From: an uncultured bacterium | GTDB lineage: Bacteria; Hydrothermota; Tepidihabitantia; Tepidihabitantales; Tepidihabitantaceae | Reading direction: 5' to 3' | NCBI GenBank assembly: GCA_964626075.1 | Contig: CAZVDD010000020.1 | Coordinates: forward strand, 2,944-66,943 | DNA: 64,000 nucleotides | In this document: positions 18,291 through 38,188 of the stretch, in pieces | Position numbering within the stretch: position 1 is the stretch's first letter | Layout of the letters: every line of letters begins with the position of its first letter | Translations under genes and position numbers: made by a program | Notes under the pieces: model-generated | What the model was told of the DNA's origin: nothing | The model's input: only the letters and a program-made list of their open reading frames with translations | Databases searched by the model: none

Positions 18291-18485
18291 ATCAGGCTTA
18301 GAACAGTATGTTCATTACCTGACTGCAGCCACGATTCATACCGGTTCTGACCCGAAAACACCACCGGGAACAGAACCGGAAATACAACTCAGCACAGCAC
18401 CCAAAGCCGGTCAGCAGATTATCAGGATAGTTGGTAATAAAATGGTGTATTAGACGGTTTTAGTTAGCACCCTGTTGATTATCGA
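18291..18485 (+). repeat. 195-bp noncoding repeat, copy 1 (partner at 37994-38188 in inverted orientation)
   Basis: An ungapped hand alignment to the reverse complement of 37994-38188 gives about 18 mismatches in 195 positions. It contains the hairpin CCGGTTCTG (18341-18349) / CAGAACCGG (18371-18379). Confidence 0.9.
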
Positions 18486-18569
18486 AGAAACAACATCGCT
18501 TTGCTTGCCAGAGTTGGGCAGGTTTAACCTATCCTGATAATGACCTCAGGTAACAACCGGATAAATTTG

Positions 18570-18597
18570 TTGCTCGGCGCGGTAATTTTTCTAAAAT
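18570..18597 (+). promoter_or_regulatory. candidate sigma-70-type promoter for the C25 peptidase gene
   Basis: TTGCTC (18570-18575), 16-nt spacer, TAAAAT (18592-18597). AGGAGG SD at 18616-18621, TTG start at 18626. Confidence 0.45.
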
Positions 18598-18625
18598 AAA
18601 AATAGATGATCAATCAGGAGGACAA

Positions 18626-21600
18626 TTGAAAAGGACTGGCGTTTTGCTGTTTGCTATTTTTGCGGTGCTCTTTGCCGGCACTGTGAACCAGACCGTTGAC
18701 ATCAAACCGGACCAGGTAGCTTTGCGCCGTTCGGGAAACTATGATGTTGTTGAGTTAACCAGCGGCTTTTTTATCCCCAACCCCGGCAAGCCGCTCCTGC
18801 CTTATACATCCTTGACCCTGCTCATACCGGCTGACGCCCGTGTCACCGCCGTTTCCGCACAACCGGTCGCCACCGAACAACTACCCGGAAGTTTCACCAT
18901 TTTTCCTGCCCCGTCACCGGTTCCCATCTCTGCTCAAACTCCAACCGCCTTTGTCGCACCGGACCCTGAGATTTACAGCTCAAACCACCCTTTTCCCAAC
19001 AGGACACTCTTCTCCCACTCAACCGGCAGCGCTGCGGGATTTAAACTGGTAAATGTCATAATCTGCCCATTTGAATACCATCCCGCGACCCAAAAACTTT
19101 TTCTTCACACCCGAATTGAAGTTGTTGTCTTCTACGAAGAACACGGTTCCACGCCTCTAACCCTGACGCAATCGCAGCGCGACCGAATCCGCCTGAGTCT
19201 GCGTCAACTGATTTCAAACCCCACGGACCTGAACCGTTTTGCCCCGCCGCTAAAAGAAATCGACCAGCCCGCGGTGGACTATTTGATAATAACCAGCGCC
19301 GAACTGTCTTCATCGTTCACTCCCTACATCCAGTACAAAACGAGCCGCGGCTTAAAAACCGAACTGAGAACGGTGGAATGGGTTGCAAACAACTACCCGG
19401 GCAGGGATTTGCCCGAAAAAATTCGCAACCTGATTATTGACTATTTTCACTCCCGTGGCCTATCTTATGTTCTACTCGCCGGAGACAATCTCCAGGTGCC
19501 GACGCGGCGCATTGAGGTCTCCGTGGGAAACGAACAGGGCTCAATACCAACCGACCTCTACTACGGCGACCTTGACTACTCCTGGGACTCGAATCACAAC
19601 AATCGCTTCGGCGAAATGGCAGACTCTGTTGACCTTTACGCCGATGTCTTCGTTGGTCGGGCATCGGTTGACAGCCGTCAACAGGTTGAGAACTTTATCG
19701 CCAAAGTCCAGGCTTTTGAAAACAACCCCGCACCCGATTACATAATGAAAAGCCTTTTGCCTTCCGGCTGGCTCTGGCGTTCCCTTAACTATCATGGCAA
19801 GTTTGTCAACGACTCCATCGCCGAAATCACCCCGCCGGACTGGACCGACCGTAAAATGGAAAATCCGCCCAGCGCGCTGGTTGTCGCCGACTCTTTTGAC
19901 CGGGGATTTTTAATCTTTAACCCCGCAGGCCATGGCAACGAATCCGGTGTTTACGACGAAGATGGCACCGCCATCTACACCAACAGTGTTGCCAGCCGCC
20001 AGCAGAACGACCGCCGCTTTTCCATCATCACCTCCCTCGCTTGCAATCCAGGCAACTTCGAAGCCGAAGACTGCCTTGCCGAAGTTGCCCTGAACTGTCA
20101 GGCGGGCGGCGCCATCGCCGTAATGATGAACTCGCGTTATGGCTGGGGCACACCGCCGGTAATGGGCCCGTCAGAAAAACTGTGCGTCCGGTTTTACGAC
20201 TTCCTCTTTAACTACGCCCAGTACCAAATCGGGCCCTGTCACGACCGTTCCCGGGAGGAGTATGCCGGCGCAGCAATTTACGACCCGCTCTGGCGCTGGT
20301 GTATGACCGAATTCAACCTGCTTGGTGACCCAACAATTGACATCTGGACCGCGCCACCGCATAACCTGGTATTAATTACACCGGACACGATTCGTACCGG
20401 CCCTCAGACATTCACCGCCACAGTTCACGAAGGAGGTAATCCGGCAGCAGGCGCCACGGTTACCGTAAGCAAAGATAGCGTGCTCCTTGCCACCGGCACC
20501 ACGAATAGCCGCGGCATTGTAAGTTTACCCATCCATCCAACAACTACCGGGCAGATCCTCATCACCACCTGGCGCCACAACAACCTGCCCAATTCAAAAA
20601 CTGTTTTCGTCGAACCGGGCGACCCGGAACCATATATTGTCTATCACCGTTATGAACTTGACGACCACGGCCAACCTTATGAAAATGGCGTCCTCGAACC
20701 AGGAGAAACCGCGTTTCTGAAAATCGTTCTCAAAAACATCGGCTCTGCTGCCGCAACCAACACCCATTTAACCCTTCGCACCTTAAACCCTAACATCTCC
20801 ATCCTCGACTCCATTGCATCAATCGGCACCATCCCCGCTGGTGACTCGATACGCGCTGATAATCTGACTGTTGCCGCCGAACCATCTACCCTGCCGGGTT
20901 CATCAGCAGATATGGTGGTGTTGATTCGGTCCGACCAAGGTGAGTTCGAACTCTGGTTTACTATTGAACTGGGCTATCCGGGCAGAACCGCAGCCGAAAT
21001 TGACACCGGTATTTGCGGCCTAACCGTCACCGCGCGGGGAACATTCGGCTATGACCCGGAATTAAACCGCAAGGGCCGTGGTTTCCGTTATCCTGAATCG
21101 GACACCAGCCGATTGAACATCGCCAGTTTTGCGCTCGGCAACTCCAGTGATTACCTTGTCGACCGATTTTACAACCAGACCCGGGGTGGTTTAGACCAGG
21201 ATTGGCACCTGCAAGACAGTCTGCGTCTTTTGCTCCCAATATGGGGTGGCGCTGAGGTACTATTCAGCAGTTTCAACGACCAGGGGCACCCGAACCGACG
21301 CGGTATAGTTGTTGACCAACGGGCATTGGGCTTTTCCCAACCGGAACTCAACCGTTCAATCGCCCTCGTATTTGACATCTGGAACACCTCCGGCGACACC
21401 TTACACAACCTCTATGCCGGTATTCTTGCCGATTTTGATGTCCGGGCAACAGACCGACTGCACGATGTTGCGTTCACCCTGCCCGAACAAAACGCCGCCC
21501 TGATGTACAATGTCAGCTCGCCCTTCCCCTGTGTTGGAATTAAACTCCTTTATCCGCGCACCCCGGCAAACCTTACCTGTATTGACCACAGCCGTTATGT

Positions 21601-22135
21601 TTACCCTGACTCCGGGCTTACCGACGGGATGAAGTTTCGTGCCCTTACCGGGAATCTCGGTGTTCAATCAAGTGACCGCCCTTACAACTGGTCACTTGGG
21701 GTCGCTACCGGTCCATTTAATATCCCCGGGCTCAATGGCAGACAAAAGGTTGCCTTCGCCTTTATTGCGGGGGACGACTCCCTCAACTTTTTGTCTTCCT
21801 GTGCCGCAATTCAGAACTGGTTTGACACCAGTGTCGGATTTGAAGAGGGTACGAAAAGCCTCATCCTGCCCTTTTCTTTAAGCCTTTCACTCCAGCCAAA
21901 TTTAATAACCAGTCATGCTTCAATCTCCTACTCCCTGCCCCGTTCCACTCCTGTAAATATCTCAATCCTCGACATCACCGGAAGAAAAGTCGCCACCCTG
22001 TTTAACCACAAAAACCATCCTGCGGGAACCTACCGAATCCGCTGGCAGCCAAGAAAATTAGTTCCTGGTGTTTACTTCTTGAAACTACAAACCATCGATT
22101 CCAGTATCACCCAGAGGTGCCTGATTCTTAAGTAA
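18626..22135 (+). CDS. large secreted peptidase C25 (gingipain-like) with a T9SS/FlgD-like C-terminal sorting domain
   Basis: 1169 aa with a signal peptide. Candidate catalytic His (NPAGHGNE) and Cys (SLACNPG). The C-terminal ~80 aa (VNISILDITGRKVATLF...GVYFLKLQT) resemble a Por secretion tail. Confidence 0.8.
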   Translation: MKRTGVLLFAIFAVLFAGTVNQTVDIKPDQVALRRSGNYDVVELTSGFFIPNPGKPLLPYTSLTLLIPADARVTAVSAQPVATEQLPGSFTIFPAPSPVPISAQTPTAFVAPDPEIYSSNHPFPNRTLFSHSTGSAAGFKLVNVIICPFEYHPATQKLFLHTRIEVVVFYEEHGSTPLTLTQSQRDRIRLSLRQLISNPTDLNRFAPPLKEIDQPAVDYLIITSAELSSSFTPYIQYKTSRGLKTELRTVEWVANNYPGRDLPEKIRNLIIDYFHSRGLSYVLLAGDNLQVPTRRIEVSVGNEQGSIPTDLYYGDLDYSWDSNHNNRFGEMADSVDLYADVFVGRASVDSRQQVENFIAKVQAFENNPAPDYIMKSLLPSGWLWRSLNYHGKFVNDSIAEITPPDWTDRKMENPPSALVVADSFDRGFLIFNPAGHGNESGVYDEDGTAIYTNSVASRQQNDRRFSIITSLACNPGNFEAEDCLAEVALNCQAGGAIAVMMNSRYGWGTPPVMGPSEKLCVRFYDFLFNYAQYQIGPCHDRSREEYAGAAIYDPLWRWCMTEFNLLGDPTIDIWTAPPHNLVLITPDTIRTGPQTFTATVHEGGNPAAGATVTVSKDSVLLATGTTNSRGIVSLPIHPTTTGQILITTWRHNNLPNSKTVFVEPGDPEPYIVYHRYELDDHGQPYENGVLEPGETAFLKIVLKNIGSAAATNTHLTLRTLNPNISILDSIASIGTIPAGDSIRADNLTVAAEPSTLPGSSADMVVLIRSDQGEFELWFTIELGYPGRTAAEIDTGICGLTVTARGTFGYDPELNRKGRGFRYPESDTSRLNIASFALGNSSDYLVDRFYNQTRGGLDQDWHLQDSLRLLLPIWGGAEVLFSSFNDQGHPNRRGIVVDQRALGFSQPELNRSIALVFDIWNTSGDTLHNLYAGILADFDVRATDRLHDVAFTLPEQNAALMYNVSSPFPCVGIKLLYPRTPANLTCIDHSRYVYPDSGLTDGMKFRALTGNLGVQSSDRPYNWSLGVATGPFNIPGLNGRQKVAFAFIAGDDSLNFLSSCAAIQNWFDTSVGFEEGTKSLILPFSLSLSLQPNLITSHASISYSLPRSTPVNISILDITGRKVATLFNHKNHPAGTYRIRWQPRKLVPGVYFLKLQTIDSSITQRCLILK

Positions 22136-22138
22136 CCG

Positions 22139-22203
22139 CGCGCCAACTATTCTATAAAAACAACTGGCAGCCCTTAATCGGGCTGCCAGTGTCGTTTGGC
22201 GCG
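22139..22203. terminator. bidirectional intrinsic terminator between convergent genes
   Basis: 10-bp GC-rich stem CTGGCAGCCC (22164-22173) / GGGCTGCCAG (22180-22189). On the minus strand it is followed by TTGTTTTTAT. It is nested inside an outer 8-bp stem, CGCGCCAA (22139-22146) / TTGGCGCG (22196-22203). Confidence 0.7.
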
Positions 22204-22213
22204 GTCTGGCTCA

Positions 22214-22414
22214 TCAGGACTTAGCGTCCTGCCCCAAAACGCTCCCCCTCCCAATTTTCTTTAAATCCATTTCACTACCGGTGAGCGCACCGTAAAAACA
22301 GTTGGGCATTACATTCAATCTACCGATATGGTTCACAAACAGCGCGGTAAGATACAAACCAATCCCCATTCCCAGTTCCAGCCACCAGCGCATCTTTAAA
22401 CCCTTGACCCCCAT
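22214..22414 (-). CDS. small hypothetical membrane protein (66 aa)
   Basis: ATG 22414 is preceded by GGAGGTGAAG. One hydrophobic helix (WWLELGMGIGLYLTALFV). Lies 16 nt after the upstream small gene. Confidence 0.55.
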   Translation of the reverse strand: MGVKGLKMRWWLELGMGIGLYLTALFVNHIGRLNVMPNCFYGALTGSEMDLKKIGRGSVLGQDAKS

Positions 22415-22430
22415 CTTCACCTCCACCTGT

Positions 22431-22628
22431 TTACAGACGCTCCCGAACCAGCAGGCGCTCTGTGGTACGGATTCTATCTTGATAGCTCTCAACCGCCTCC
22501 TTCGGACTCACCGGCATCGTAAAAGTTCCCACATCAACACTCTTAAGCCGCAACACAAAAAGCCCTGCAACCAACACTACGCACACCATCAAAAACATCG
22601 CCAACTTCTCTACTCCTTTACCAAACAT
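22431..22628 (-). CDS. small hypothetical membrane protein (65 aa)
   Basis: ATG 22628 is preceded by AAAGGAGGAA. N-terminal TM helix (LAMFLMVCVVLVAGLFVL). It is the first gene after the -24/-12 promoter. Confidence 0.6.
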   Translation of the reverse strand: MFGKGVEKLAMFLMVCVVLVAGLFVLRLKSVDVGTFTMPVSPKEAVESYQDRIRTTERLLVRERL

Positions 22629-22686
22629 ATTTCCTCCTTTTTCTACTTTTACTAACCTTACCTGATTCTTCATACACCTATTTAAA

Positions 22687-22702
22687 AGCACCAACTGTGC
22701 CA
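22687..22702 (-). promoter_or_regulatory. sigma-54 (-24/-12) promoter
   Basis: The minus strand reads TGGCACagttgGTGCT, against the consensus TGGCAC-N5-TTGCW. It lies about 60 nt upstream of ATG 22628 and directly downstream of a sigma-54-type activator gene. Confidence 0.6.
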
Positions 22703-22732
22703 GAAAAATAAAAAATGTTATAAATAACGAAA

Positions 22733-22745
22733 TATCAATATATTA
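22733..22745. promoter_or_regulatory. IHF-like site between the UAS and the -24/-12 promoter
   Basis: TATCAAtataTTA matches WATCAANNNNTTR. It sits in a very AT-rich tract. Confidence 0.35.
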
Positions 22746-22778
22746 CAATATACTGCCACTTCACTTTTCTAAAACTGG

Positions 22779-22797
22779 TGTCTTAGATAATGAGACA
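22779..22797. promoter_or_regulatory. palindromic upstream activator site 1 (TGTCT-N9-AGACA)
   Basis: TGTCTtagataatgAGACA lies about 90 bp upstream of the -24/-12 element. It shares the ATGAGACAGT half-site with UAS 2. Confidence 0.5.
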
Positions 22798-22868
22798 GTA
22801 CTACCGCGATTTAAGCTTTTAAATTACCAGAATAATATTATAACTAATTGAAAATATGTAAGATAATT

Positions 22869-22889
22869 CTGTCTACAACTATGAGACAG
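22869..22889. promoter_or_regulatory. palindromic upstream activator site 2 (CTGTCT-N9-AGACAG)
   Basis: CTGTCTacaactatgAGACAG lies about 180 bp upstream of the -24/-12 element and immediately after the activator stop codon. Confidence 0.5.
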
Positions 22890-22890
22890 T

Positions 22891-25578
22891 TTAGCTTTGC
22901 GGCGTGATGTTATGTTTCTTTAAAAGTCGGTAAAACTGGGCCCTGCTATAGCCGGCAATTTTTGCCGCCTTACTCACATTACCACCTGCCTGTTGCAAAC
23001 AACGAACCAGTGACTCTTTTTCCACTTCTGCCGCCGCCTGTTCCTGTGCCCTGCGCCGGTTGATACGCAAATTGACGGTTTTCTCCAAAGAGAACTCTTC
23101 AACCAACTTCTGAAACTGAACAGGCAGGTCAGACAGCGCGATTTCTTCGCCGCTGGCGAGCAGCACACAGCGCTGAATCACATGCTGCAACTCCCTGATG
23201 TTACCAGGCCAGTGATAGTTAAGAAAACACCTCATAACCTCCGGGGTAACCCCTTTTACCTGCCGATTTGTCTCCTGATTTGCCCATGCGATGAAGTACT
23301 GTACCAGTGGGCCAATATCTTCCTTCCTTTCCCGGAGCGGCGGCAAAAAGATTTCGACGCCGTTAAGACGGTAGTACAGGTCTTCCCGAAATTTCCCCTC
23401 TTTAATTAGCAATTCAAGATTCTGATTGGTCGCTGCTACAACCCGAACATCAACCTTTATCGGTTTTGCCCCACCCACTCGTTCAAACTCCTTCTCCTGG
23501 AGAACCCGCAACAGTTTTGCCTGCAAACCCGGACTCATATCGCCAATCTCGTCGAGAAAAACGGTACCGCCATTGGCAAGTTCAAACTTACCCTTTCGGG
23601 CAACGACGCCGGTTGCCGCCCCTTTTTCCACACCAAAAAACTCTGCTTCTAAAAGCGTCTCGGGCACCGCGGCACAGTTAATTGTTATAAACGGTTTATC
23701 ACACCGCGGACCAGAAAGATGCAGTGCCCGGGCGATAAGCTCCTTGCCGGTGCCGCTTTCTCCCCGAATCAAAACCGGCACTGAAGAATGGGCACTCCGG
23801 GCAACGATTTCAAGATTTTTTCGCATCACCGGCGCATTGCCAATCACACCCGAGAAACACAAACCAGGAATCTCCCGCTCTTCGGACTCCAGCTTAATAC
23901 CCGCGCTCCTTAGTCGCTGAACCGCAGGCATAATCAGCGCTACAATCGTGTTCAAAACTAAAGGATTACACCGTTGAACCGCGCCCGGTTCATACTCTAA
24001 ATAAATGCCGCCGAAAAACGAATCTCCGGCAACAACCGGGAGCCATACTCCTCGCTCAAAGTTCACCTGTTTCCTGCCATTTGCCGCGGCAAATCGCGCT
24101 TCATCTAAGTTCACCTGACCGAAAACAAATCTGGGCTCTCCCTCGCTCAAAAAAGCCCCTCCTCGACAACCCCAGGCTTCGCACATCCTCTTGAATGCTT
24201 CAGTTAAAAAATTCGCCGGTTCCAGCCCCATCGTTGATAGCCCAGACACGGCTGAGAGCACCGCCATATCCCTGTCTACACCCAACTCCAGTCCAAATAG
24301 AATCTGGTTGATCTCATCCGCCTCCGCCACCACACCAAGATTTCTGAACACCTGAGCGGCACGTTTGAGTAAAGCCACCCCCTGTTCCTGTTTACCCTGC
24401 TTCAGGAGAAACCGCCCATATTGAAATTGCACCCGGGCAAACTCGTAACTGTTTTGCGCTCCGGAAAGCAATTCCCGCGCCTTTTCAAAACAGGCAGTTG
24501 CCGCCGCCTCCATCCCCATCTCAATTTCAAGTAACGCCCGTACCCGCAACACCTCCGCTTCCTCTTTGTTCGCCTGTAACTCCCGTGCCATTTCAATCGC
24601 CCGAGCACAAAGCCCGGCACATCGTTCCATCTGCCCTCTTGCCAGTTCCAGCTCTGCCATCCGCCAGTAGATGTCGATTATCCCGAGCCTATCCCGGGTC
24701 CGTTCACAAAGCGTGAGCGCCTCCTGATAAGCCCCGCTTGCCGCTGCCAGATTGTGCCGGCGGAACTCCGCTTCACCTAAATTGATTAACCCCTCCTGTA
24801 ATATCTCTCCTAAACCCTCCCGACCCGCTTTTACCACCTGGCTAAACAGTTCTACCGCCCGGTCTAGACGATTTTTCTTTAAGGCTAACTCGCCAAGGAC
24901 ATTAATCGCATTCCAGCGGACAAAATCGTATCCCCGTTTTTCGGCAAGTGCGATTGCCCGGTAGAGATTTTCCGCCCCCTCTTCCCAGTTTCCCAATTCA
25001 ATCAAAACCCAACCCAGATTGTAGTAATTTACCGCTCGGACCGAGTCATCGCTCTCGTCCGAGAGCATTTCACTACAACTTCGATAATACTTCAGCGCCT
25101 CTTCAAACCGCCCCTGAAAACCGGCAAGGTTTCCCATTTGGTTTAATGCCGCATAAACCCCTTCTTCATACCTATCTTTCTCCCAAATTTCCCGCGCCTG
25201 ACGGTAACAGCCCAGCGCTGCCTCGTATTCACCCGCCTTCTCGTGAATTATCCCCATAAGATAAAACCCACTACCCTGAAGCCGCTGATGCCCCAAATCC
25301 TTTGCCAATTTTAATGTCTGACTGGCATAATGCCGGCTCGCCTCAACATCCCCTAACAATCGGCACACATCCGCCAGCCGCAGAGAAATTCGGACCATCT
25401 GTTCCATTGCACCGATATCCCGGCAAATTTTCAACGCCTCTTCCAGCAGCGGCTTTGCCTCAGTCGGAGCGCTGATGCGCAACTCGTCGCCGAGCGCAAT
25501 AATACAGTTAAGACGCTCTTTATCATCCTGCGCTTTTTTTAATTGCTCCTTTAAACTTCGAAGGTTATCTTTCGGCAT
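22891..25578 (-). CDS. sigma-54-type enhancer-binding protein with a long N-terminal TPR array and a GAF-like sensor
   Basis: 895 aa. About 420 aa of TPR-like repeats, a GAF-like segment, an AAA+ core (GESGTGKELIARALH, VFLDEIGDM, RVVAATN, ELQHVIQR) and a C-terminal Fis-type HTH (NVSKAAKIAGYSRAQFYRLLKK). The GAFTGA loop reads GAATGV. Confidence 0.85.
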   Translation of the reverse strand: MPKDNLRSLKEQLKKAQDDKERLNCIIALGDELRISAPTEAKPLLEEALKICRDIGAMEQMVRISLRLADVCRLLGDVEASRHYASQTLKLAKDLGHQRLQGSGFYLMGIIHEKAGEYEAALGCYRQAREIWEKDRYEEGVYAALNQMGNLAGFQGRFEEALKYYRSCSEMLSDESDDSVRAVNYYNLGWVLIELGNWEEGAENLYRAIALAEKRGYDFVRWNAINVLGELALKKNRLDRAVELFSQVVKAGREGLGEILQEGLINLGEAEFRRHNLAAASGAYQEALTLCERTRDRLGIIDIYWRMAELELARGQMERCAGLCARAIEMARELQANKEEAEVLRVRALLEIEMGMEAAATACFEKARELLSGAQNSYEFARVQFQYGRFLLKQGKQEQGVALLKRAAQVFRNLGVVAEADEINQILFGLELGVDRDMAVLSAVSGLSTMGLEPANFLTEAFKRMCEAWGCRGGAFLSEGEPRFVFGQVNLDEARFAAANGRKQVNFERGVWLPVVAGDSFFGGIYLEYEPGAVQRCNPLVLNTIVALIMPAVQRLRSAGIKLESEEREIPGLCFSGVIGNAPVMRKNLEIVARSAHSSVPVLIRGESGTGKELIARALHLSGPRCDKPFITINCAAVPETLLEAEFFGVEKGAATGVVARKGKFELANGGTVFLDEIGDMSPGLQAKLLRVLQEKEFERVGGAKPIKVDVRVVAATNQNLELLIKEGKFREDLYYRLNGVEIFLPPLRERKEDIGPLVQYFIAWANQETNRQVKGVTPEVMRCFLNYHWPGNIRELQHVIQRCVLLASGEEIALSDLPVQFQKLVEEFSLEKTVNLRINRRRAQEQAAAEVEKESLVRCLQQAGGNVSKAAKIAGYSRAQFYRLLKKHNITPQS

Positions 25579-25596
25579 CGCTTAACTCTCTTTTTC

Positions 25597-25624
25597 AGCA
25601 TAAACACCCAACAATTTGTGTCAA
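25597..25624 (-). promoter_or_regulatory. sigma-70-type promoter for the activator gene
   Basis: On the minus strand: TTGACA (25624-25619), 16-nt spacer, TATGCT (25602-25597). Confidence 0.5.
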
Positions 25625-25636
25625 GCACGACATATT

Positions 25637-25665
25637 TTGACATTACCAGAAAAACCGCTTAATAT
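25637..25665 (+). promoter_or_regulatory. sigma-70-type promoter for the divergent zinc-ribbon gene
   Basis: TTGACA (25637-25642), 17-nt spacer, TAATAT (25660-25665). The ~65-nt leader contains a hairpin (AACGGC...GCCGTT) and an AAGGAG SD. Confidence 0.55.
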
Positions 25666-25732
25666 AATTTCGGCTAAACGGCAGTAAGCCGTTGTTTGTT
25701 CGGGAGGTAAGAGCAAACGAAAGGAGTCAATA

Positions 25733-25981
25733 ATGGCACGACCAACCTGCCCGCAATGCGGTAGCGACAACACCTGGGCTCATTATGAGCATCAGGTCAG
25801 TTCTGTTGGACCCGGTGTCTCAAAAGCCCATGTCTGGGAGCGGGAAGCAGAAATCCTGCCCGATGGTAGACCGATATCAGTTCCCTGTCCCGGCTGCACC
25901 GATGGCATCCAATACCCGCCGCTGTACTTCTATTGTCAAGCCTGCAATCACATCTGGTCACCAAACTCCGGGATTGGATAA
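25733..25981 (+). CDS. small zinc-ribbon protein (three CxxC pairs)
   Basis: 82 aa with CPQC, CPGC and CQAC. Has a good SD and is divergent from the activator gene. Confidence 0.6.
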   Translation: MARPTCPQCGSDNTWAHYEHQVSSVGPGVSKAHVWEREAEILPDGRPISVPCPGCTDGIQYPPLYFYCQACNHIWSPNSGIG

Positions 25982-26004
25982 TGGGTTGAGCCCGCCAGGA
26001 TGGA

Positions 26005-26751
26005 CTACATCAGCATCCCACCATCAACCCGGATAACCTGGCCGGTGATGTAACCCGCCTCTTCGGAAGCAAGGAACAGGCACACTGCGGCAACATCTTG
26101 CGGTGTGCCTGCTCGTTTTAACGGAATCGCCTCGAGATACCGTGCCTTTGTCGTTGCATCGAGTTTTTCGGTCATTGCGGTTGCGATAAACCCCGGGGCA
26201 ATCGCATTCACCGTGATATTTCGCGGCGCCAGCTCTTTGGCAACCGCCTTTGTAAACCCGATTAAACCCGCCTTTGCCGCCGCATAGTTCGCCTGTCCGG
26301 CGTTGCCCATCTGCCCGATAACCGAACTGATATTGACAATTCTTCCCCAGCGCGCCTTCATCATTGCCCGGCAGCCAACTTTTGTCCAGTTGAACGCGCC
26401 TTTGAGATTCACCGCTATCACCCGGTCAAAATCGTCCTCGCTCATCCGTAAAAGTAGATTGTCCCTTGTAATGCCGGCGTTGTTAACTAAAATGTCCAGG
26501 CGGTTAAACCTCTTTTCAATATCTTCACAGGTTTTTACCGCCTGAGTAAAATCGGCAACATCAACCTGATAGGCTACTCCCTCTCCACCCTGTGCTTTAA
26601 GTTCACCAACCACCCGCTCTGCCGCATCTAAAAACAGGTCACACACCGCAACCTGAGCACCTGCTTTTCCCAGTTCCAGCGCAATCGCCCGTCCGATGCC
26701 CGAACCGGCACCGGTCACAACCGCCACTTTACCATTTAATTCGACCTTCAC
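26005..26751 (-). CDS. fabG: 3-oxoacyl-ACP reductase (SDR family)
   Basis: 248 aa with TGAGSGIGRA, NNAG and YAAAKAG motifs. Confidence 0.85.
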   Translation of the reverse strand: MKVELNGKVAVVTGAGSGIGRAIALELGKAGAQVAVCDLFLDAAERVVGELKAQGGEGVAYQVDVADFTQAVKTCEDIEKRFNRLDILVNNAGITRDNLLLRMSEDDFDRVIAVNLKGAFNWTKVGCRAMMKARWGRIVNISSVIGQMGNAGQANYAAAKAGLIGFTKAVAKELAPRNITVNAIAPGFIATAMTEKLDATTKARYLEAIPLKRAGTPQDVAAVCLFLASEEAGYITGQVIRVDGGMLM

Positions 26752-26760
26752 TTAAACCTC

Positions 26761-28413: not shown

Positions 28414-28430
28414 CTGTGACCGATTTAACT

Positions 28431-28778: not shown

Positions 28779-28784
28779 CAAGTT

Positions 28785-28812
28785 AGTATAACCCCTTGAA
28801 CGAATTTGTCAA
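28785..28812 (-). promoter_or_regulatory. sigma-70-type promoter abutting the bactofilin start (implies a leaderless mRNA)
   Basis: On the minus strand: TTGACA (28812-28807), 16-nt spacer, TATACT (28790-28785). ATG 28778 lies 6 nt downstream. Confidence 0.6.
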
Positions 28813-29162
28813 AACGACGTCCTGGTTAAACCGGATGTCTGTGCTTTACCCTGCACCCGTAATATTTATGAGCCCGTTAAAATAGAAAATTAACGGGGAA
28901 TATTGTCGTTGCCACGCTAACAAACAGGTTTGTAAACAGTTAGAAAAATTTACCCGGCGCGCCCGGGGTATACCTCGATACTGTTCCCGGGTTCGTCCCT
29001 GATAGACTACATTATGCCACCAGCACCCGAATCAAGATATTCACCTCGGTCAGTCCGGCACCCCGAAACTCCGCTTCTCTAATCGCTTCAGAATCCTTAT
29101 CAAACCACCTCACCCTGTTTACTTTTGTTCTCAGGTGGTTATCAGAACTGGCGCCCTGTCCG

Positions 29163-30353: not shown

Positions 30354-31962
30354 CCACCGTTATCTGCCCGAGGTCATCCACTGTGTACAGTACCCGATAC
30401 ATCACTCCCGTAGTTATCTGACATTCGCCGCGCCCGGGCAAAAGCACCAGCGCCGGATTGGTCTCAGGAACAAACCCCTTTTCGCTAAAAGTGAACGCTG
30501 TCGGTTCGGAAACAAAAATCGGTTGTGGGTTACCTTCGCCAAAAGGTGCCAGTTCTACCACATCCCGCTCAAATTTATTCAGGGGTAAAAAACCATCGGC
30601 AAACGGCATCAACTCCCGAACAATCTTCGGGGCAAAGTTGGTGTGGGCAAAGCGTTCTGCCGCCCGGATAAAATCGGCAACATTCTCCTCCTTAATTGAA
30701 AAACCTGCTGCCTTCTTGTGGCCACCGTAGTCGATAAAGTAGTTACGCATCGCCCGCAACAAATCCATTAAATCAACACCATCCATCCCGCGACACTCAC
30801 CAACCCAGACATCACCCCGTCGACCGATAACAATTGCTGGTACCCCGTACCTTTCCCGCAACCGCGCCGCGCTGAAACCCAGCGCCCGTAACGACAGGTC
30901 CGGGTGTTGCACAAAAAGTATCCCGTCACCGAGCCTGACATTCGCGCTCGCCAGGGCAAATGTTTTCTCCGCCTCCTCACGCCACATCTGACTGCGCACC
31001 ACCAGTTCCTTAACCCACTCTTCCGCAACCGCCGGGTCCTGGTTAAGAAAATGGCGCACCCCGTCTGCACCGTTCGCCGATGCAAACAGGGGCAAAAGTT
31101 CGGCAAGAAATCCGCTGACCGTAAAACCCTGGGGCGGAAAGTTTATCGACCGCAGCACCGCACGCACCGCCGGTATACCGGTCTTTTCCAGCTGGCGCAA
31201 TCCGTGTTTTACCAGCACCCGATTTTCACCGATGAGTGATGCCCGGTCTGCGATTGTCCCGAGTGTCGCTAAAACAAGCGCATCCTGATAAACGGAAAAG
31301 AACTCCGCAGCGGAAAATCCCAGTTTCTCCTTTACCAGTCCCAGCGCCAGTTTCAGCGCCACCCCGACCCCGGTCAGATTGGTATCCGGGTAGTCGGAAT
31401 CCAGCCGCTTTGGGTCAACCGTGGCAACCGCACCGGGCAACGGGTCAATAACCTCATGATGGTCGGTTACAACTACATCGACCCCAACTCTCTTCAATTC
31501 CGCAACATCCTGGTGGTTTGTGATACCGCAATCAACCGTAATTATCAACCGGACTTCGTTTGCCCCGGCACCTTCGATATACCGATAATCAAGCCCGTGT
31601 TTGTCTTTGCCTTTAACCGGAATGTAATACCTTGCCTTTGCCTGAAGCCCGCTAAGCACCTGATAGAGCAAAACTGTCGCCGTTATTCCATCCAGGTCGT
31701 CGTGCCCCCAGATAAGTACGGTCTCTTTTTTTTCTATCGCCTGAAAAATCCGGTCTCGTGCCAGTTCAAAGTCGGGCAAAAGCTCCGGAGGATGTAAATG
31801 GGTAAAATTCGGGTTGAGCCACATTTCAGCGTCGGTCCGGTCCTTTACACCCCGCAACACCAGCAATCGGGCAAGAGGCTCGGAAATTTTTAACTCCTGA
31901 ACCAGCGCCTTAACCCGTTCCTCATCAACCGGCTTAACAGGCCAGACCGTGCTACTCATCAC
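30319..31962 (-). CDS. RecJ-like DHH/DHHA1 phosphoesterase (paralog 1, inside the envelope operon)
   Basis: GHDDLDG, VDCG, VVTDHHE and YGGHKKAAG motifs. No signal peptide. Confidence 0.8.
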   Translation of the reverse strand: MMSSTVWPVKPVDEERVKALVQELKISEPLARLLVLRGVKDRTDAEMWLNPNFTHLHPPELLPDFELARDRIFQAIEKKETVLIWGHDDLDGITATVLLYQVLSGLQAKARYYIPVKGKDKHGLDYRYIEGAGANEVRLIITVDCGITNHQDVAELKRVGVDVVVTDHHEVIDPLPGAVATVDPKRLDSDYPDTNLTGVGVALKLALGLVKEKLGFSAAEFFSVYQDALVLATLGTIADRASLIGENRVLVKHGLRQLEKTGIPAVRAVLRSINFPPQGFTVSGFLAELLPLFASANGADGVRHFLNQDPAVAEEWVKELVVRSQMWREEAEKTFALASANVRLGDGILFVQHPDLSLRALGFSAARLRERYGVPAIVIGRRGDVWVGECRGMDGVDLMDLLRAMRNYFIDYGGHKKAAGFSIKEENVADFIRAAERFAHTNFAPKIVRELMPFADGFLPLNKFERDVVELAPFGEGNPQPIFVSEPTAFTFSEKGFVPETNPALVLLPGRGECQITTGVMYRVLYTVDDLGQITVVACHSEPESAH

Positions 31963-31967
31963 CTCGG

Positions 31968-33500
31968 TTAATGGTCAATCAACACGATACGGCCCTCAAT
32001 CTGGGCATCAACCGGCGAATGGCGCCGGATATAGTCGGCAATAACATCGCGCAATGGCAGATAACTGTCTTCGATATCCTGTCCCTCGGCAAAAATCCGA
32101 TAATCGCCACTGCCTGCCGCAAGGTACGAATTGGTCGCCACGGTGTAAACCCGGTTACTATCCAGCGGCTCCCCATTGACAAGCACCGAAACCACCCGTT
32201 CGCCAATCGGCCTCTTTTTTGTGTAGCGCATCTTTACACCGGAAACCTGAAATATCGCATGGTGTCCGTTAACTGAAACCTCAAGCATCTCTTTGACCTG
32301 CTTCCCGGTCCACTTTCCGGTCACCACCGTATTACCAAAAACATCAACCTGATAGACGTGCCGGTAACTAACCGGGCCTGCTGGAATGTTTGCCCTGATA
32401 CCTGCCGAATTGTGGATGGCGATGTCGGTGTTGAACCGCTCGCGCATCGCATCGGTTATCAAATTGCCCGCTGGTGTCTCGATAAAACCACCCCGGGTCA
32501 GTTCCCTTTTACAGTAGCCTAAAACCTCATCAAAACCCTTTTCCGCTACCGCGCGCACCGAATCAAGATGTCGGGCATAAATCAAATCCCGGGGAATCTC
32601 GTCACCTAAGAGGTCAATCAGTTTTCCCTGATATCCAACAATCTGGCGGGTCTTGAGGTCAAAACTGATGTCCAGAACCCCAACCGTACTCAACTTTGAA
32701 TACGCCTGCTGGATAATCGTATGGTTTTTCGGACTCTCATAAGGTGGTTTCACACCGGTGTGGCTGTGCGCGCCGATGATGATGTCAACACCCGGGACCG
32801 AATCGGCAAAACGCTGGTCATGGCTATACCCGATGTGGTTCAGTGCCACGACAATATCCGCGCCTTGGTCTTGCAACCGTTTCACCTCCTCGCGGGCAAC
32901 CTCGTAGTAAGGCAAAATCGATAGGTTACCAATCAAAGATTCGTTGACCATCCCGTAAAGGTACTTGGTCAAGACCCCCAGCAGTCCGATTTTCACCCCG
33001 CCCCGTTCAAAAATCGCGCTGGTTACCAAAAAACCGGGCGCGGTATCGGTCCCTTTAACCCGGACATTGGTCGCAACCCAGGGAATTTGTGAACTGTCCA
33101 CCAGCTCCTTCAAAACCCACCATCCCATATCAAAGTCGTGGTTCCCGGGTGCAACCGCATCGTAACCGGCCCGCCGGAAAAAGTCCACCACCGCCTGACC
33201 CCGGGTAAAGTCGCCAACCGGAGTTCCTTTAAATATATCGCCGCCATCAAGGAGTAAAAATCCAAACCCATTACGCACCGCCGAATCCCGTAACTCCCGA
33301 ATCACCGTCATCGCGCCACTGGCATTGGCAAGTGGGGGCGGAAAATTCTTATCCAGCCAGTATGCTTCTCCGGGCAAAAGGGCACCGTGAATATCGTTCG
33401 TATGGACAATAAATATATGCTGGACCTGACTAAAGCCAAAAGCAACTAAGATTAAGAAAAGCGCTATCCCCCGCAAAACATTGCTCTCCTTAAAACTCAT
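31968..33500 (-). CDS. secreted bifunctional metallophosphatase / 5'-nucleotidase (UshA-like)
   Basis: Signal peptide. HTNDIHG, GGDIFKG, GNHDFD and GAHSH motifs, plus a C-terminal nucleotidase domain. Confidence 0.85.
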   Translation of the reverse strand: MSFKESNVLRGIALFLILVAFGFSQVQHIFIVHTNDIHGALLPGEAYWLDKNFPPPLANASGAMTVIRELRDSAVRNGFGFLLLDGGDIFKGTPVGDFTRGQAVVDFFRRAGYDAVAPGNHDFDMGWWVLKELVDSSQIPWVATNVRVKGTDTAPGFLVTSAIFERGGVKIGLLGVLTKYLYGMVNESLIGNLSILPYYEVAREEVKRLQDQGADIVVALNHIGYSHDQRFADSVPGVDIIIGAHSHTGVKPPYESPKNHTIIQQAYSKLSTVGVLDISFDLKTRQIVGYQGKLIDLLGDEIPRDLIYARHLDSVRAVAEKGFDEVLGYCKRELTRGGFIETPAGNLITDAMRERFNTDIAIHNSAGIRANIPAGPVSYRHVYQVDVFGNTVVTGKWTGKQVKEMLEVSVNGHHAIFQVSGVKMRYTKKRPIGERVVSVLVNGEPLDSNRVYTVATNSYLAAGSGDYRIFAEGQDIEDSYLPLRDVIADYIRRHSPVDAQIEGRIVLIDH

Positions 33501-34614
33501 ACTCCATGCCGGTTCTCAAGTTAAATTTCGTCTCGTACGCCCGAAAATCAGCATCCTCAGGAATTAAAGCAAAATCGCTTGCGTTGAGCGCCTCCCGGTT
33601 TAAATTACCGTCAAGGTTAATCCGGTATCGGCCCGCATTAAAACCGAGCCCGAACAGCGCCTCAACCCGATGCACCGTTGGGTCCGTAAAGAGTGGACGC
33701 AGCCCAAACCCGTAACGCAGCCGAACCGAGTTCAGCATGATATGCTCAACGGTCGTCTGAACATAAATCACATTGTGGAAGCCCGGGTAGATTTCAGACC
33801 AGGCTTCGGTACCGACAACCAGTTTAACCTGTGATGGCAGTTGCCCCGGCGCCTGATAGTTCAACTCAACCTCTCCGCGCCCCGGATAACCCTTGAGGTC
33901 AAAACTGTCCGGACCGTTAAACCGCAACCGGCTCTGATAACTCAAACCGGCACTGAACCGCAACAACGGCGCTACCGTTAAGCCGGCGTTCCAGCCTAGA
34001 CCTTTCGGACCGCTCTTGACGGAAAAATTGACGGTATCCAATCCCCGAACCATTGTACTCTTAAGTTCCCGTTCACCCCAGGCGTAGCAAAATCCCGCAC
34101 CCAGCGCAATAAACTTTATCGGCTTAAACGCCGCGGCAATGTTACCCGAATAGAGAAACCCGCCCTGCTCGAGCCGGTCTTCACCAATTTTAACATAAAA
34201 CTCGTCCCGGTACTCCTTCAAATAGCGGTAATGGAAGTCACGCACCGGTGCAAGCCCCGCGCCCAGCGCAAATCGACGAAACGGATAAACAATTGAAACT
34301 GGTCCCGGCACCCAGTTAAAACCAATATTGTCCGCAAACACCGCTTCACCAATTGTATTCTCAAACTGGTCATACACATACCGCACCCGTTGCTCTGAAA
34401 CATACCTCAGCCCCCAGTTGACACTGACCCGGGGCGCCACCGCAAGTTCGCCGCGACCGGCTAAATCGGCCGGGTTCAGGAAAACCCCATCAGGAGTTGG
34501 TCTTAACCATTCTCCAAGATAATCTCGCATCGGAATGGTCGGCGTGGCAAAACCGACCAACACCATCACCAGCACCCCAATCAAACAACATCGATGGCGA
34601 TATATTCTTATCAA
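33490..34614 (-). CDS. hypothetical outer-membrane beta-barrel protein
   Basis: Signal/TM N-terminus, alternating beta-strand pattern, C-terminal ...GMEYEF (terminal aromatic residue). Confidence 0.6.
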   Translation of the reverse strand: MIRIYRHRCCLIGVLVMVLVGFATPTIPMRDYLGEWLRPTPDGVFLNPADLAGRGELAVAPRVSVNWGLRYVSEQRVRYVYDQFENTIGEAVFADNIGFNWVPGPVSIVYPFRRFALGAGLAPVRDFHYRYLKEYRDEFYVKIGEDRLEQGGFLYSGNIAAAFKPIKFIALGAGFCYAWGERELKSTMVRGLDTVNFSVKSGPKGLGWNAGLTVAPLLRFSAGLSYQSRLRFNGPDSFDLKGYPGRGEVELNYQAPGQLPSQVKLVVGTEAWSEIYPGFHNVIYVQTTVEHIMLNSVRLRYGFGLRPLFTDPTVHRVEALFGLGFNAGRYRINLDGNLNREALNASDFALIPEDADFRAYETKFNLRTGMEYEF

Positions 34615-34624
34615 TTTTCACCCC

Positions 34625-37000
34625 CTACCATAAAAAGTCCAACTGCATACTGACATTGAACCGGCTTTCCCGGCTAACAAAATCGGAAACCGGCGTGCCA
34701 TCACCATAATGGACACCCTCATTGTTCGCGAGTCCGGTATGAGGAAAGTCGCTTATCTTATGCCGGAACTTCAGATAAAAGAGCAGGTGTTCGGAAATCT
34801 GGTCGGTCAGTGCCAGATACCACTTAAACCCCTGCCCATCAACAAAGTCAATGGTGTTGTCCTCAAACAGCCACTCCGACATCCCGGCACTACGCCAGGT
34901 CGCAACACCCAGTTCACCGCTGAAACGCGGTGAAAAGTTGTGTTCCCACTGCACCGCGATGAAGTCACCGTTGATGCTCGCCTCATCACCGTACTTCAGG
35001 GTTGGCGTTAGCACCGTTCGCCCGGAACGCACCTCGGCCGTCAGATAGTCCCAGTTGGAAAGTGAGAGCATCGCCCGCAAGGTTGACTCCAGGGAGAGCG
35101 AATTGGTCGGCACCGCCGGTTTCGGATTTTCTCGCAGTTGTACCTTCTGCTTAAACCTCAATCGCACACCAAAAACCGGCCGATACTCAACCTCGCCTTG
35201 AAACCGACAGTTGTCACTACCCCAGGCAAGGTTGCGCCACACATCCAGATAAGCCCGGGTAATGGTAACCGCCCGCGAAATCTGATAACGCGTCTCAACC
35301 ATAACACCCTCTTCTGCCTTAGGCATCGGAAACTTCGCCAGCGCGGTAAATGCCGGGTCGATGAGCCGATAGGGCTTCTCTAATGTCGTATTTTCAAACC
35401 GCAACTCCTCGCAATAACCCCGATTGTAATGATTGACATAGTTCACATCGTAACGCCGATAAAGGACATTGACATAGAGATAGTCGTACTGGGTACGCGC
35501 CTTGACCAGATAAGCATTGCCGCCGCGCTGCTGGCGGGCAACTTCTCCCTCCAGGGAGAAGTTTTCAATTGCCGTTCGGAAATCGGCACCATAAAACATC
35601 TTTGTTCTGCCGGTATCCAGCCGTAGGTAATTAGGGTCGTTCAGGACTTCAGCATCGCCGGGCAGGTCAAGAAAACGCGCCTCGGGCTGAAAATTTCTAC
35701 TCATCTGACTGGACAAAACCGAGGCACCGATACGAGTCCCGACGGGTAAAAAGCCCAATCCCGATAAATCGAACTTTAAATTACCGCCCGTGCTCGTCTC
35801 CTGCAAAACATCTTTGAAAGTAGGGTAGCGCGGCGTGGAAACAATCAACCAGTTTACGCTACTGTCCGGATTGAGAATCGCATCCCGCTTTGCCCGGGAG
35901 AAGAACCCCAGAAAACCGGTTCGGCCCAGGCGAACCGTACCCGCTGCGCCCCGCATACCAAACCCTAAATTTTCATTTAAGTCGCCGAAAAGCCCTTCTC
36001 TTCGATTGTAAACCCGGGGTAAAAGTTCAAAATCGTTGTCGAGCAAAATCCCCTGTCCCAGTGCCAGCCGATAATCACCAACTATCACCCGTTTCACCGG
36101 TCCCAACTCATCTAACGCCACATAACCTTTCACATCACTTATCACTCCCGGTTCATACAACTTCTGTCCCCCCCAACCACCCAGATGTAATTTGTCTCCC
36201 CAGCGCAATCTTAGCCGGTGACGGGCACTTGCTTCATTTCTCATCCGGGCACGATAGGTGCTTTCAGCATTAAGTCGCTGCCGGAAAAACTCAATCTCTT
36301 CGGTGGTGAATCCCGCCTGCCGGAATTCTGCGGTATCGGTTGCCACTGTTTTAAGCGCCGCAGCAAACTCACTTGGGTCAACAACCACATCCCAATCCGG
36401 GCTGGTCTCCAACTTAATCCGGTAGTTACCACCCCATCGGTTCTGACCCGCCCGGTCGGTAAATTTTACATAGTGACGCATCCCCCGGTAACCATAGGTT
36501 GACAACCCATCCACCCGACTGGCAAGGTCGCGCCGGCTTTCTATCTTTCCACCCCCTTTCAGGTACTTAACCACCGCCACCGCATCCAGGAGCGAAACAT
36601 TCTCCAGCGTCAACAGGTCGTCAACCGTTGCCCGATTGATGTTCAACGGGTCAACTAAAAGGTCCTGCCACTCTTCGACGACCGCTTTACTCGGGCCATC
36701 TTCACTTGCCAGCCGCCGCTGAATGCGCAGCAGGTTCTCCTCCTGAACTTCCTCCCAGTCACGCCGGCTGATGTAAATCAGCGGCTTCAACTCCTTTAGT
36801 TTTTCCGGGGTGATACCGGGTATTTGCAAAAGGTCGTAAATACTGTTCAGCCGCCCGTACAAAAGGAGATATTGATAAATCTGCTGCGCCGTAACCGAAT
36901 CAACCGGCAACTGCCGGATATCTTCAAAACGGGCGTTGTTGATATCCAGCTGCCGGTCAGGCGTAAAAGTAGCAATCAGGAAAATGAACACCCAGACCAT
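34625..37000 (-). CDS. outer-membrane protein with two N-terminal ComEA-like helix-hairpin-helix modules and a large C-terminal beta-barrel-like region
   Basis: 791 aa. HhH module 1 reads LDINNARFEDIRQLP...LLQIPGITPEKLKELKPLIY. HhH module 2 reads LNINRATVDDLLTLENVSLLDAVAVVKYLK. The remaining ~600 aa are beta-rich and end ...MQLDFLW. Confidence 0.65.
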   Translation of the reverse strand: MVWVFIFLIATFTPDRQLDINNARFEDIRQLPVDSVTAQQIYQYLLLYGRLNSIYDLLQIPGITPEKLKELKPLIYISRRDWEEVQEENLLRIQRRLASEDGPSKAVVEEWQDLLVDPLNINRATVDDLLTLENVSLLDAVAVVKYLKGGGKIESRRDLASRVDGLSTYGYRGMRHYVKFTDRAGQNRWGGNYRIKLETSPDWDVVVDPSEFAAALKTVATDTAEFRQAGFTTEEIEFFRQRLNAESTYRARMRNEASARHRLRLRWGDKLHLGGWGGQKLYEPGVISDVKGYVALDELGPVKRVIVGDYRLALGQGILLDNDFELLPRVYNRREGLFGDLNENLGFGMRGAAGTVRLGRTGFLGFFSRAKRDAILNPDSSVNWLIVSTPRYPTFKDVLQETSTGGNLKFDLSGLGFLPVGTRIGASVLSSQMSRNFQPEARFLDLPGDAEVLNDPNYLRLDTGRTKMFYGADFRTAIENFSLEGEVARQQRGGNAYLVKARTQYDYLYVNVLYRRYDVNYVNHYNRGYCEELRFENTTLEKPYRLIDPAFTALAKFPMPKAEEGVMVETRYQISRAVTITRAYLDVWRNLAWGSDNCRFQGEVEYRPVFGVRLRFKQKVQLRENPKPAVPTNSLSLESTLRAMLSLSNWDYLTAEVRSGRTVLTPTLKYGDEASINGDFIAVQWEHNFSPRFSGELGVATWRSAGMSEWLFEDNTIDFVDGQGFKWYLALTDQISEHLLFYLKFRHKISDFPHTGLANNEGVHYGDGTPVSDFVSRESRFNVSMQLDFLW

Positions 37001-37005
37001 CAGCG

Positions 37006-37827
37006 TTAAAATTTCACCAGCACCCCGAAGTTGTGCGTCAAGGGTAAAACCGGATGGGTTTTGAGCGCATAATCAACCCGGACCCGTTCCACGCCGCTAC
37101 CCAACCCAAAAGAAAACGTTACCGGCTCGGTACTGGCGCCGGCACGCAGCGTCAGGTACCGAGGGATGATTTCAAACTCCTGTCCCAGGGCAATTCTGGT
37201 CCGCATCCCCGGCTCCTTGGAAAATCCCAGGGCGGAATGAATACCCGGGGTCGGCGAAAAACCCAGTCCAAACGCCAGAATTCGGCTAATTTCCGACTCG
37301 CCAATCCTGGGCAAATTTATATTGTGGACATAAAAACCTGCGCTCCAGAAGCGGTGCACCCGGACAAACATTCCCAGATCCAGACCTGCTGTCCAGCCCT
37401 GACCGTAATCCTTTTGATAAAGGTTGTACCCGTTTAGCCCATAACCAAAAAATATCCCTTCTGCCAGTTCAAACCCGTGCGCCAGTTTTATTGACCGCTG
37501 CGATTGAAGAGAAAAGCCGGTCTCCTGAACCCGCAGACCAAAAGTCCCTAACTTCTTGACAGGTATGCCCATGCCGGCGTAAACCGTATGCAAACCAACA
37601 TCAACACCGCTGTAAAGCAACTTATAAAACCCCAGGAACTGCCGTTCCGGCACCTGCGCCAGTCCTGCGGGATTAAAATCAATCGCGCTGATGTCATCTG
37701 CCAGTGCCCAAAAAGCACCGCCCATACCATCTGCGCGCACGCCGGTACCGTCGTCTTCAAAAATGGCATACCCGGAAGAAAAAAGAACCGCCCAAACCAC
37801 GACCAATGTCGCAAAATTTGCCTTCAT
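37006..37827 (-). CDS. PorV/PorQ-like outer-membrane beta-barrel protein
   Basis: Signal peptide MKANFATLVVVWAVLFSSGYA. Signature GVRADGMGGAFWALADDISAIDFNPAGLA. Ends ...GVLVKF. Start taken at ATG 37827 rather than the upstream TTG at 37863. Confidence 0.7.
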   Translation of the reverse strand: MKANFATLVVVWAVLFSSGYAIFEDDGTGVRADGMGGAFWALADDISAIDFNPAGLAQVPERQFLGFYKLLYSGVDVGLHTVYAGMGIPVKKLGTFGLRVQETGFSLQSQRSIKLAHGFELAEGIFFGYGLNGYNLYQKDYGQGWTAGLDLGMFVRVHRFWSAGFYVHNINLPRIGESEISRILAFGLGFSPTPGIHSALGFSKEPGMRTRIALGQEFEIIPRYLTLRAGASTEPVTFSFGLGSGVERVRVDYALKTHPVLPLTHNFGVLVKF

Positions 37828-37835
37828 TAAACTCA

Positions 37836-37863
37836 ATTCTATCCAGTGTGATTTTTGAGTCAA
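37836..37863 (-). promoter_or_regulatory. sigma-70-type promoter abutting the PorV-like gene start (implies a leaderless mRNA)
   Basis: On the minus strand: TTGACT (37863-37858), 16-nt spacer, TAGAAT (37841-37836). ATG 37827 lies 8 nt downstream with no SD. Confidence 0.5.
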
Positions 37864-37993
37864 GTTAAAGGTCTTTACGGTACAAGCAAGGCGATGCTAC
37901 CCCTTATTTATACCCCTTTTTTTCTATCACCCCTTTTATCATCCTTCTTAGTCTATTGAAAACCATTTTCGAGACCATTTCGCGCCTATCTTA

Positions 37994-38188
37994 TCGATAA
38001 TCAACAGGGTGCCAACTAAAACCGTCTAAGACACCCTTTTATTACCAACTATCCTGATAATCTGCTGACCGGTTTTGAGTACTGTCCTGAGTTGTATTTC
38101 CGGTTCTGTTCCCGGTGGTGTTTTCCGGTCAGAACTGATATGAATCGTGGCTGCAGGCAGGTAAGTGCCATTCTGTTCTAATCCTGAC
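37994..38188 (-). repeat. 195-bp noncoding repeat, copy 2 (inverted partner of 18291-18485)
   Basis: The reverse complement aligns without gaps to copy 1 at about 91% identity. It ends in the perfect palindrome TTATCGATAA (37991-38000). Confidence 0.9.

Follow-up and report, generated by a model that had tools for sequence, protein, structure and literature searches.

The tuf system is a model of non-reciprocal conversion between paralogues (PMC5485169). Like tufA/tufB of Salmonella or multiple rRNA operons, the repeat described here has two copies in a single chromosome, in this case inverted, that are closer to each other than to their positional counterparts in a related species, with mosaic identity along their length. 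It lies in a 64,000-nucleotide stretch of DNA from an uncultured bacterium (contig CAZVDD010000020.1 of assembly GCA_964626075.1), called the window below, where a pair of inverted copies brackets a block of genes running from a C25 cysteine peptidase gene to a gene for a PorV-like outer-membrane protein. It differs from the tuf and rRNA systems in that the repeat is short (194 nt; ~670 nt in a sister species), non-coding, 9% diverged between copies and known from sequence only. Moreover, no selected product accounts for its retention here. The feature is real and lineage-specific. As a phenomenon it is already known, the pair being a new and clean natural case of concerted evolution in short non-coding inverted repeats.

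A repeat search of the window returned one inverted pair with arms of 194 nt that are 91% complementary and 19,508 nt apart. The copies are referred to as c1 and c2, the PorV end of the block as site A and the C25 end as site B.

18292..18485, + strand: core repeat copy 1 (c1), 194 nt, 3' of an outer-membrane-protein-like gene and 84 nt 5' of the C25 promoter
37994..38187, - strand: core repeat copy 2 (c2), 194 nt, 3' of a 121-aa gene and 130 nt 5' of the PorV-like promoter

The two copies are identical at 177 of 194 positions with zero gaps, and their longest identical runs are 39 nt and 36 nt. A first-pass annotation of the window, made from the sequence alone, had described a gap-free inverted pair with about 18 mismatches in 195 positions; over those 195 nt our recount was 18, comprising 8 transitions and 10 transversions. 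The same annotation had noted no other intergenic repeat of this length in the window, and our repeat search agrees. No second inverted repeat of at least 40 nt was detected in the 64-kb window, and the sole other repeat found there was a 54-nt direct repeat of 72% identity (7718-7771 and 55594-55647). The edges of the element are sharp, the similarity between the left flanks of c1 and c2 being at chance level (shuffle p = 0.55). The bases bordering the core (TTAAA/AGAAA at copy 1 and AGGAG/TAAGA at copy 2) differ between the copies and are not duplicated.

The same inverted pair is present at the same two sites in a sister species (GCA_037441285.1), whose proteins are 93% (PorV), 80% (C25) and 88% (outer-membrane protein) identical to those of the window. 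At site A, on contig 17 (L011), the 121-aa gene is followed by a partly deleted element (6560-6784), a promoter of sequence TTGACA-17-TATATT, a leader of ~190 nt, four genes that include one for a type IX secretion system (T9SS) cargo protein, and then PorV. At site B, on contig 25 (L084), the orthologue of the outer-membrane-protein gene is followed by ~220 nt of flank, a full element, ~185 nt, and the same promoter as in L011. L084 ends in 55 nt that recur at 100% identity at the start of contig 36 (L079), an overlap that links this copy (copy B) to a leader, an 87-aa gene, a 507-aa T9SS cargo gene and C25. Copy B (L084:10980-11173) is full-length and aligns without gaps, matching c1 at 152 and c2 at 151 of 194 positions. 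The repeat in the sister genome is ~670 nt long and reaches the start codons of genes that are unrelated to each other. As the cassette genes of site A in the sister are not paralogous to those of site B, an inverted duplication of a whole cassette was ruled out. None of these cassette genes is present in the window.

Were the pair merely old, each window copy would be expected to match its positional counterpart in the sister best, but base sharing among the copies follows genome and not position. In the core, c1 and c2 agree with each other and differ from copy B at 33 sites, compared with 8 sites at which c1 alone matches B and 7 at which c2 alone does. In a comparison of all four copies over 90 shared columns, all 12 parsimony-informative sites unite copies of the same genome, with 0 in support of position and 0 of the remaining pairing. 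The identity of c1 to c2 is 91%, as against 78% to the positional counterpart in the sister. Between the two sister copies identity is a mosaic, rising from 77-84% in the core through 87% in the adjoining segment to 94% over the 253 nt, comprising promoter and leader, that run up to the start codons. The sharing of derived bases by genome, together with this mosaic identity, indicates that gene conversion between the inverted arms has homogenised the pair within each genome. The pattern would also arise if duplications had reached these two sites separately in each lineage, a much less parsimonious history.

Outside the core, the DNA between the flanking genes is variable. Homology to the sister DNA (81-87%) breaks at 18530-18535 and at 37874 and resumes at 38287, and megablast homology to L078, L079 and L081 begins at window position 18530-18535. 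The right flanks of c1 and c2 have in common only the 14-mer CATCGCyTTGCTTG (shuffle p = 0.03), which occurs in exact form at two places in the window.

18173..18529, + strand: variable intergenic block at the C25 site; the core excepted, it has no sister-genome DNA counterpart at this position
37875..38286, - strand: variable intergenic block at the PorV site, where the sister genome has instead a 3.5-kb stretch (element remnant, promoter, leader and four genes)
18494..18507, + strand: CATCGCyTTGCTTG motif (CATCGCTTTGCTTG), common to both copies
37883..37896, - strand: the same motif (CATCGCCTTGCTTG), ~97 nt after copy 2
18529..18541, - strand: perfect inverted copy of the 13-mer ATTATCAGGATAG, sited exactly where sister-genome homology resumes

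The CATCGCyTTGCTTG motif aligns with the -35 region (CGCCTTGACA) of the sister's cassette promoter and is probably what remains of such a region. The 13-mer ATTATCAGGATAG is also found inside both cores (18418-18430 and 38049-38061). The palindrome at its centre, TATCNNGATA, has 4 occurrences in the window, where 0.26 are expected, the fourth site being at 22475-22484. The palindrome TATCNNGATA was considered as a functional motif and dropped for want of conservation in the sister copy. Copy 2 is separated from the PorV promoter by an A/G-rich spacer with three spaced AAGGGGT(A/G) repeats (37898-37940, read on the - strand); copy 1 has no such spacer.

The genes and promoter-like sequences adjoining the two copies are as follows.

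17411..18172, + strand: 253-aa outer-membrane-protein-like gene, 5' of copy 1; its adjacency to C25 is ancestral
18570..18597, + strand: C25 promoter-like sequence TTGCTC-16-TAAAAT, conserved in L078, L079 and L081
18626..22135, + strand: C25 cysteine peptidase gene with a T9SS C-terminal sorting domain (Pfam hits), 3' of copy 1
37006..37827, - strand: gene for a PorV/PorQ-family (UPF0164) outer-membrane protein, 3' of copy 2, heading an operon
37836..37863, - strand: promoter-like sequence of the PorV-like operon, TTGACT-16-TAGAAT, conserved in L011, L012 and L013
38290..38652, - strand: 121-aa gene, 5' of copy 2, 79% identical to its L011 orthologue by tblastn

Both copies are oriented towards their downstream gene and each stands between co-directional genes. 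This gene context bears out what had been read from the sequence at first pass, namely the same orientation of each copy relative to the gene downstream, with promoters ~85 nt (C25) and ~130 nt (PorV) away. Because the element ends 84 and 130 nt 5' of the native promoters, it is not part of their leaders. The possibility that the two genes 5' of the copies are paralogues was ruled out, as the genes are unrelated. At the PorV-like gene (37825-37863, - strand) 8 nt separate the end of the -10 box TAGAAT from the ATG, a Shine-Dalgarno sequence is not apparent, and the mRNA may lack all or most of a leader.

More distant relatives (67-71% identical in PorV, 69-70% in C25 or the outer-membrane protein) keep the outer-membrane-protein gene next to C25 and the 121-aa gene next to PorV, without the element. 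The spacers in element-free relatives are 45 to ~154 nt long where measured, being 45 nt at the C25 site of L085 (a 70%-identity relative) and 68 nt and 154 nt at the PorV sites of L012 and L013, respectively. The C25 and PorV promoters are also conserved in relatives that lack the element. Contigs of the same species from other metagenomes (L001-L003 and L006) are 99.9-100% identical to the window and have the same arrangement, and copy 2 is identical in the three other assemblies L001-L003.

The core appears to be moderately constrained between the two species. At fourfold-degenerate sites of six orthologous genes (n = 1,673), 62% of positions are identical between the species, compared with 152/194 (78%) in the core, where there is no indel; the surrounding intergenic DNA is largely unalignable. 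This comparison argues for moderate purifying selection on the primary sequence of the core. Given a rate of change below that of synonymous sites, the core is most likely a DNA-level, cis-acting binding region for a putative regulator 5' of promoters. At all four sites the element points towards, and sits 5' of, a sigma-70-like promoter that is ~85-220 nt away. A DNA-level cis role is a plausible fit both to this geometry and to the moderate constraint. Operator and activator regions of co-regulated promoters likewise lie at such distances 5' of sigma-70-like promoters in a fixed orientation, and likewise show constraint at the sequence level without RNA structure; the neighbours in the present case are T9SS cargo and PorV-type genes. 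The resemblance is incomplete, as the palindromic candidate motif is not conserved between species and one sister copy is partly deleted.

With slightly better than even confidence, we favour the interpretation that the arms are the retained upstream part of a duplicated promoter region, and probably a DNA-level cis-regulatory site. A promoter-bearing upstream region would have come to face inwards at both ends of the C25...PorV block in a common ancestor, making the pair older than the split of the window's species from its sister and confining it to one narrow lineage of candidate division WOR-3. Non-reciprocal recombination has since kept the two copies of each genome alike. The sister's repeat runs into the sigma-70-type promoter and the leader of ~190 nt, which would drive a different T9SS cargo cassette at each site. 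In the window's lineage the promoter, leader and cassettes would have been lost at both sites, most simply by deletion, leaving the 194-nt core and a vestigial -35 about 85-130 nt 5' of the native C25 and PorV promoters. If the core is regulatory, it may define a small regulon in WOR-3 that joins a secreted C25 protease to a PorV-type outer-membrane shuttle. Protein names in public sources place the organism in WOR-3, a phylum that, to our knowledge, lacks cultured members and in which type IX secretion is not known to be regulated.

Several observations weigh against a retained cis-regulatory site. The candidate operator ATTATCAGGATAG/TATCNNGATA is not kept in the sister copy, and the homology of CATCGCyTTGCTTG to the sister -35 is weak (p = 0.03). 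The core remnant in L011 has lost ~45 nt at its 5' end and ~81 nt at its 3' end, so that an intact core is not indispensable. The constraint estimate comes from one species pair, the two element-bearing species, and fourfold-degenerate sites may overstate the neutral rate. Finally, the scans of the window's and the sister genome cover incomplete assemblies, so that there may be copies beyond the assembled parts. The main rival and a serious alternative, which we consider possible but clearly less probable, is that the arms are a functionless leftover of an inverted duplication of the cassette upstream region, alike because of conversion or because the duplication was fairly recent. Consistent with such a neutral relic are the confinement of the element to two species, the partial deletion of one sister copy and the lack of any operator, promoter or conserved structure that could be defined. 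Homogenisation is not recent, given the 9% divergence of the window copies and identical runs of no more than 39 nt, which is a further point for the relic. However, neutral concerted evolution should not slow divergence between species, and the core is gap-free and more similar than fourfold sites amid flanking DNA that cannot be aligned. Ongoing inversion of the 19.5-kb segment between the repeats, giving two genome isomers in the population, had been suggested at first pass and is in our view improbable. One half of that suggestion stands: the copies are inverted and have demonstrably recombined with each other, as the derived bases shared within the two genomes show, and according to the gene map an inversion would leave both downstream genes co-directional with their new upstream neighbours. 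The other half does not, in that the window's isomer was found in all four independent assemblies (L001, L002 and L003 across copy 2, L006 across copy 1) and an inverted isomer in none. The gene order and orientation are identical in the sister genome and in relatives without the element. In addition, + strand GC skew is unbroken, at -0.193 in the segment and -0.156 and -0.183 in the flanks, and is negative in genes on either strand. The skew implies that the segment has long been in its present orientation. At 91% identity with such short identical runs, RecA-dependent recombination in the presence of mismatch repair is infrequent. Rearrangement does occur at these junctions, since a relative (L078) has a PorV-side cargo gene of the sister beside C25; nevertheless, that arrangement does not stem from a crossover between the repeats, because the cassettes lie inside them. 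Inversions mediated by rrn operons or insertion sequences (IS), and invertible promoter switches, likewise involve an inverted pair that brackets a segment and copies that have recombined. The present locus differs from them in its one orientation and its strand composition matching that of the flanks, in the absence of a recombinase or invertase gene from Pfam scans of the segment's large open reading frames (ORFs) and the adjoining genes, and, with respect to promoter switches, in having no promoter between short inverted repeats.

A small regulatory RNA in two paralogous copies, or a structured 5' leader, had also been put forward at first pass, and in its favour are the discrete boundaries of the repeat, the modestly better folding of copy 1 than of shuffled sequences in the forward direction (z = -2.9) and a sigma-70-like TTGGCA-16-TAAGAT at the 3' edge of copy 2. 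However, neither copy 2 nor either reverse strand surpasses shuffled sequences in folding, and Rfam gave no match to the element either at gathering thresholds over the whole window or at E-values up to 10 with both window copies and L011, where only chance matches (E of at least 1.9) were returned. The 9-bp hairpin pointed out in copy 1 and the pairing CTGACCGG/CCGGTCAG in copy 2 are both present, but neither is conserved between species. In the gap-free alignment of c1, c2 and B, compensated pairs numbered 0/47 in the forward and 2/47 in the reverse orientation, with more than 12 broken in each, and the covariation term was unfavourable (+2.8 and +1.9 kcal/mol, respectively); this comparison draws on about two independent lineages. 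Compensatory changes in a 3' hairpin, seen in a first alignment with L011, were withdrawn when the L084 copy showed that part of L011 had been aligned to the neighbouring segment. Consensus scans revealed neither a conserved promoter ahead of the core nor a terminator behind it, and both native promoters lie downstream of the element. With helices broken and not compensated between species, we regard an RNA as doubtful in the extreme, at about the level of ongoing inversion. Least probable of all is that the element is a short protein-coding gene or a miniature mobile element akin to repetitive extragenic palindromes (REPs) or miniature inverted-repeat transposable elements (MITEs). One reading frame of 53 codons is open in all three full copies, and in the sister an ATG two codons 5' of the core opens a 55-codon ORF (L084:10974-11141) that ends at the same TAG inside the element. 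In the window copies AAG or ATT stands where the sister has this ATG, and the frame has no start codon. In the frame c1 and c2 differ by 1 synonymous and 14 non-synonymous codon changes, a count made at first pass that our own reproduced, and third codon positions vary least. Amino-acid identity to the sister, counted from the translations, is ~58%, compared with 78% at the nucleotide level. A coding gene was ruled out by the missing start codon in the window copies and the substitution pattern. For a mobile element speak the sharp boundaries and an insertion-like pattern of presence and absence among relatives. Against it, each genome has only two copies, which occupy corresponding sites in the two species, no terminal inverted repeats join the two ends of the core, and no target-site duplication is present in the flanks of either copy. 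REPs, bacterial interspersed mosaic elements (BIMEs) and MITEs are likewise intergenic and non-coding, with short hairpins, and likewise break short-read assemblies; they differ in having tens to hundreds of copies, and in these same respects of termini and shared sites.

Searches beyond the window recovered the known copies and chance matches. Scanning metagenome contigs with the exact core GATTATCAGGATAGTTGGTA gave 5 loci, namely L006 (copy 1) and four chance matches inside genes. Among the 64 loci returned from GTDB genomes with the exact core CCGGGANCAGAACCGGAAA, the sole real one was the sister-genome contig. The exact-core scan of viral contigs gave a single locus (L083), and a profile search covering it gave no match. 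The chance matches in these scans lay inside genes of unrelated organisms. BLAST searches of plasmid and phage collections found no matches to the element, and a profile search of the window and the relatives' loci found no third copy. The membership in a dispersed repeat family that had been among the suggestions at first pass, and with it a REP- or MITE-like dispersed repeat, is not supported in these collections and incomplete genomes. Two Logan contigs (L004 and L005) end, at their position 1 (window ~38066), inside the 36-nt run shared without mismatch by c1 and c2, and contigs of the relatives L078, L081 and L082 end just 5' of C25 or PorV and added no copies. The repeat breaks short-read and k-mer assemblies at both junctions and can hide cassettes in metagenome-assembled genomes.

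A role of the core as a sigma-54 enhancer, for which a -24/-12 promoter ~80-150 nt downstream was taken as the criterion, was rejected: no -24/-12 site (TGGCAC-N5-TTGC) within 2 mismatches lies downstream of either copy. The spacing is wrong in the sequence TTGGCACCCTGTTGAT of copy 2, with its TTGGCAC, which copy 1 does not share, having AG for GG.

The pair marks two junctions at which T9SS cargo genes turn over between close relatives. This turnover is visible at L011:6460-9953, L079:1-2396 and L078:1-305. The sister genome has four genes before PorV, among them a 476-aa cargo gene adjoining PorV, and two before C25; in L078 the 3' end of a homologue of this 476-aa gene directly precedes C25. 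The junctions just 5' of both promoters are therefore rearrangement-prone. It is conceivable, although rather unlikely, that the inverted modules are paired T9SS-cargo "expression sites" that place a common promoter region at either end of the C25...PorV block and that recombination keeps alike as cassettes are gained, lost or swapped behind them. The window's species would then represent the empty state and the sister the loaded state, with L078 having one of the sister's cargo genes at the other site. If true, this would amount to recombination-based variation of secreted proteins in an uncultured phylum.

Other features of the window were noted. A near-consensus sigma-54 promoter (TGGCACAGTTGGTGCT, 1 mismatch; 22687-22702, - strand) lies just 3' of a TPR-containing sigma-54 activator gene (22891-25578, - strand) and precedes two small ORFs of ~65 aa each, which are also present in L078, L079 and L081. 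The activator gene and the two small ORFs look like a small activator-plus-target unit beside C25. The + strand GC skew is negative over the whole window (1-64000), with no switch of the kind that marks a replication origin or terminus, though gidA/mnmG is present (38681-40543). The window also contains a bacterial class A RNase P RNA (43477-43846, + strand, 288 bits) and four tRNA genes (11498-11579, + strand; 62216-62288, 63741-63813 and 63885-63955, all - strand).

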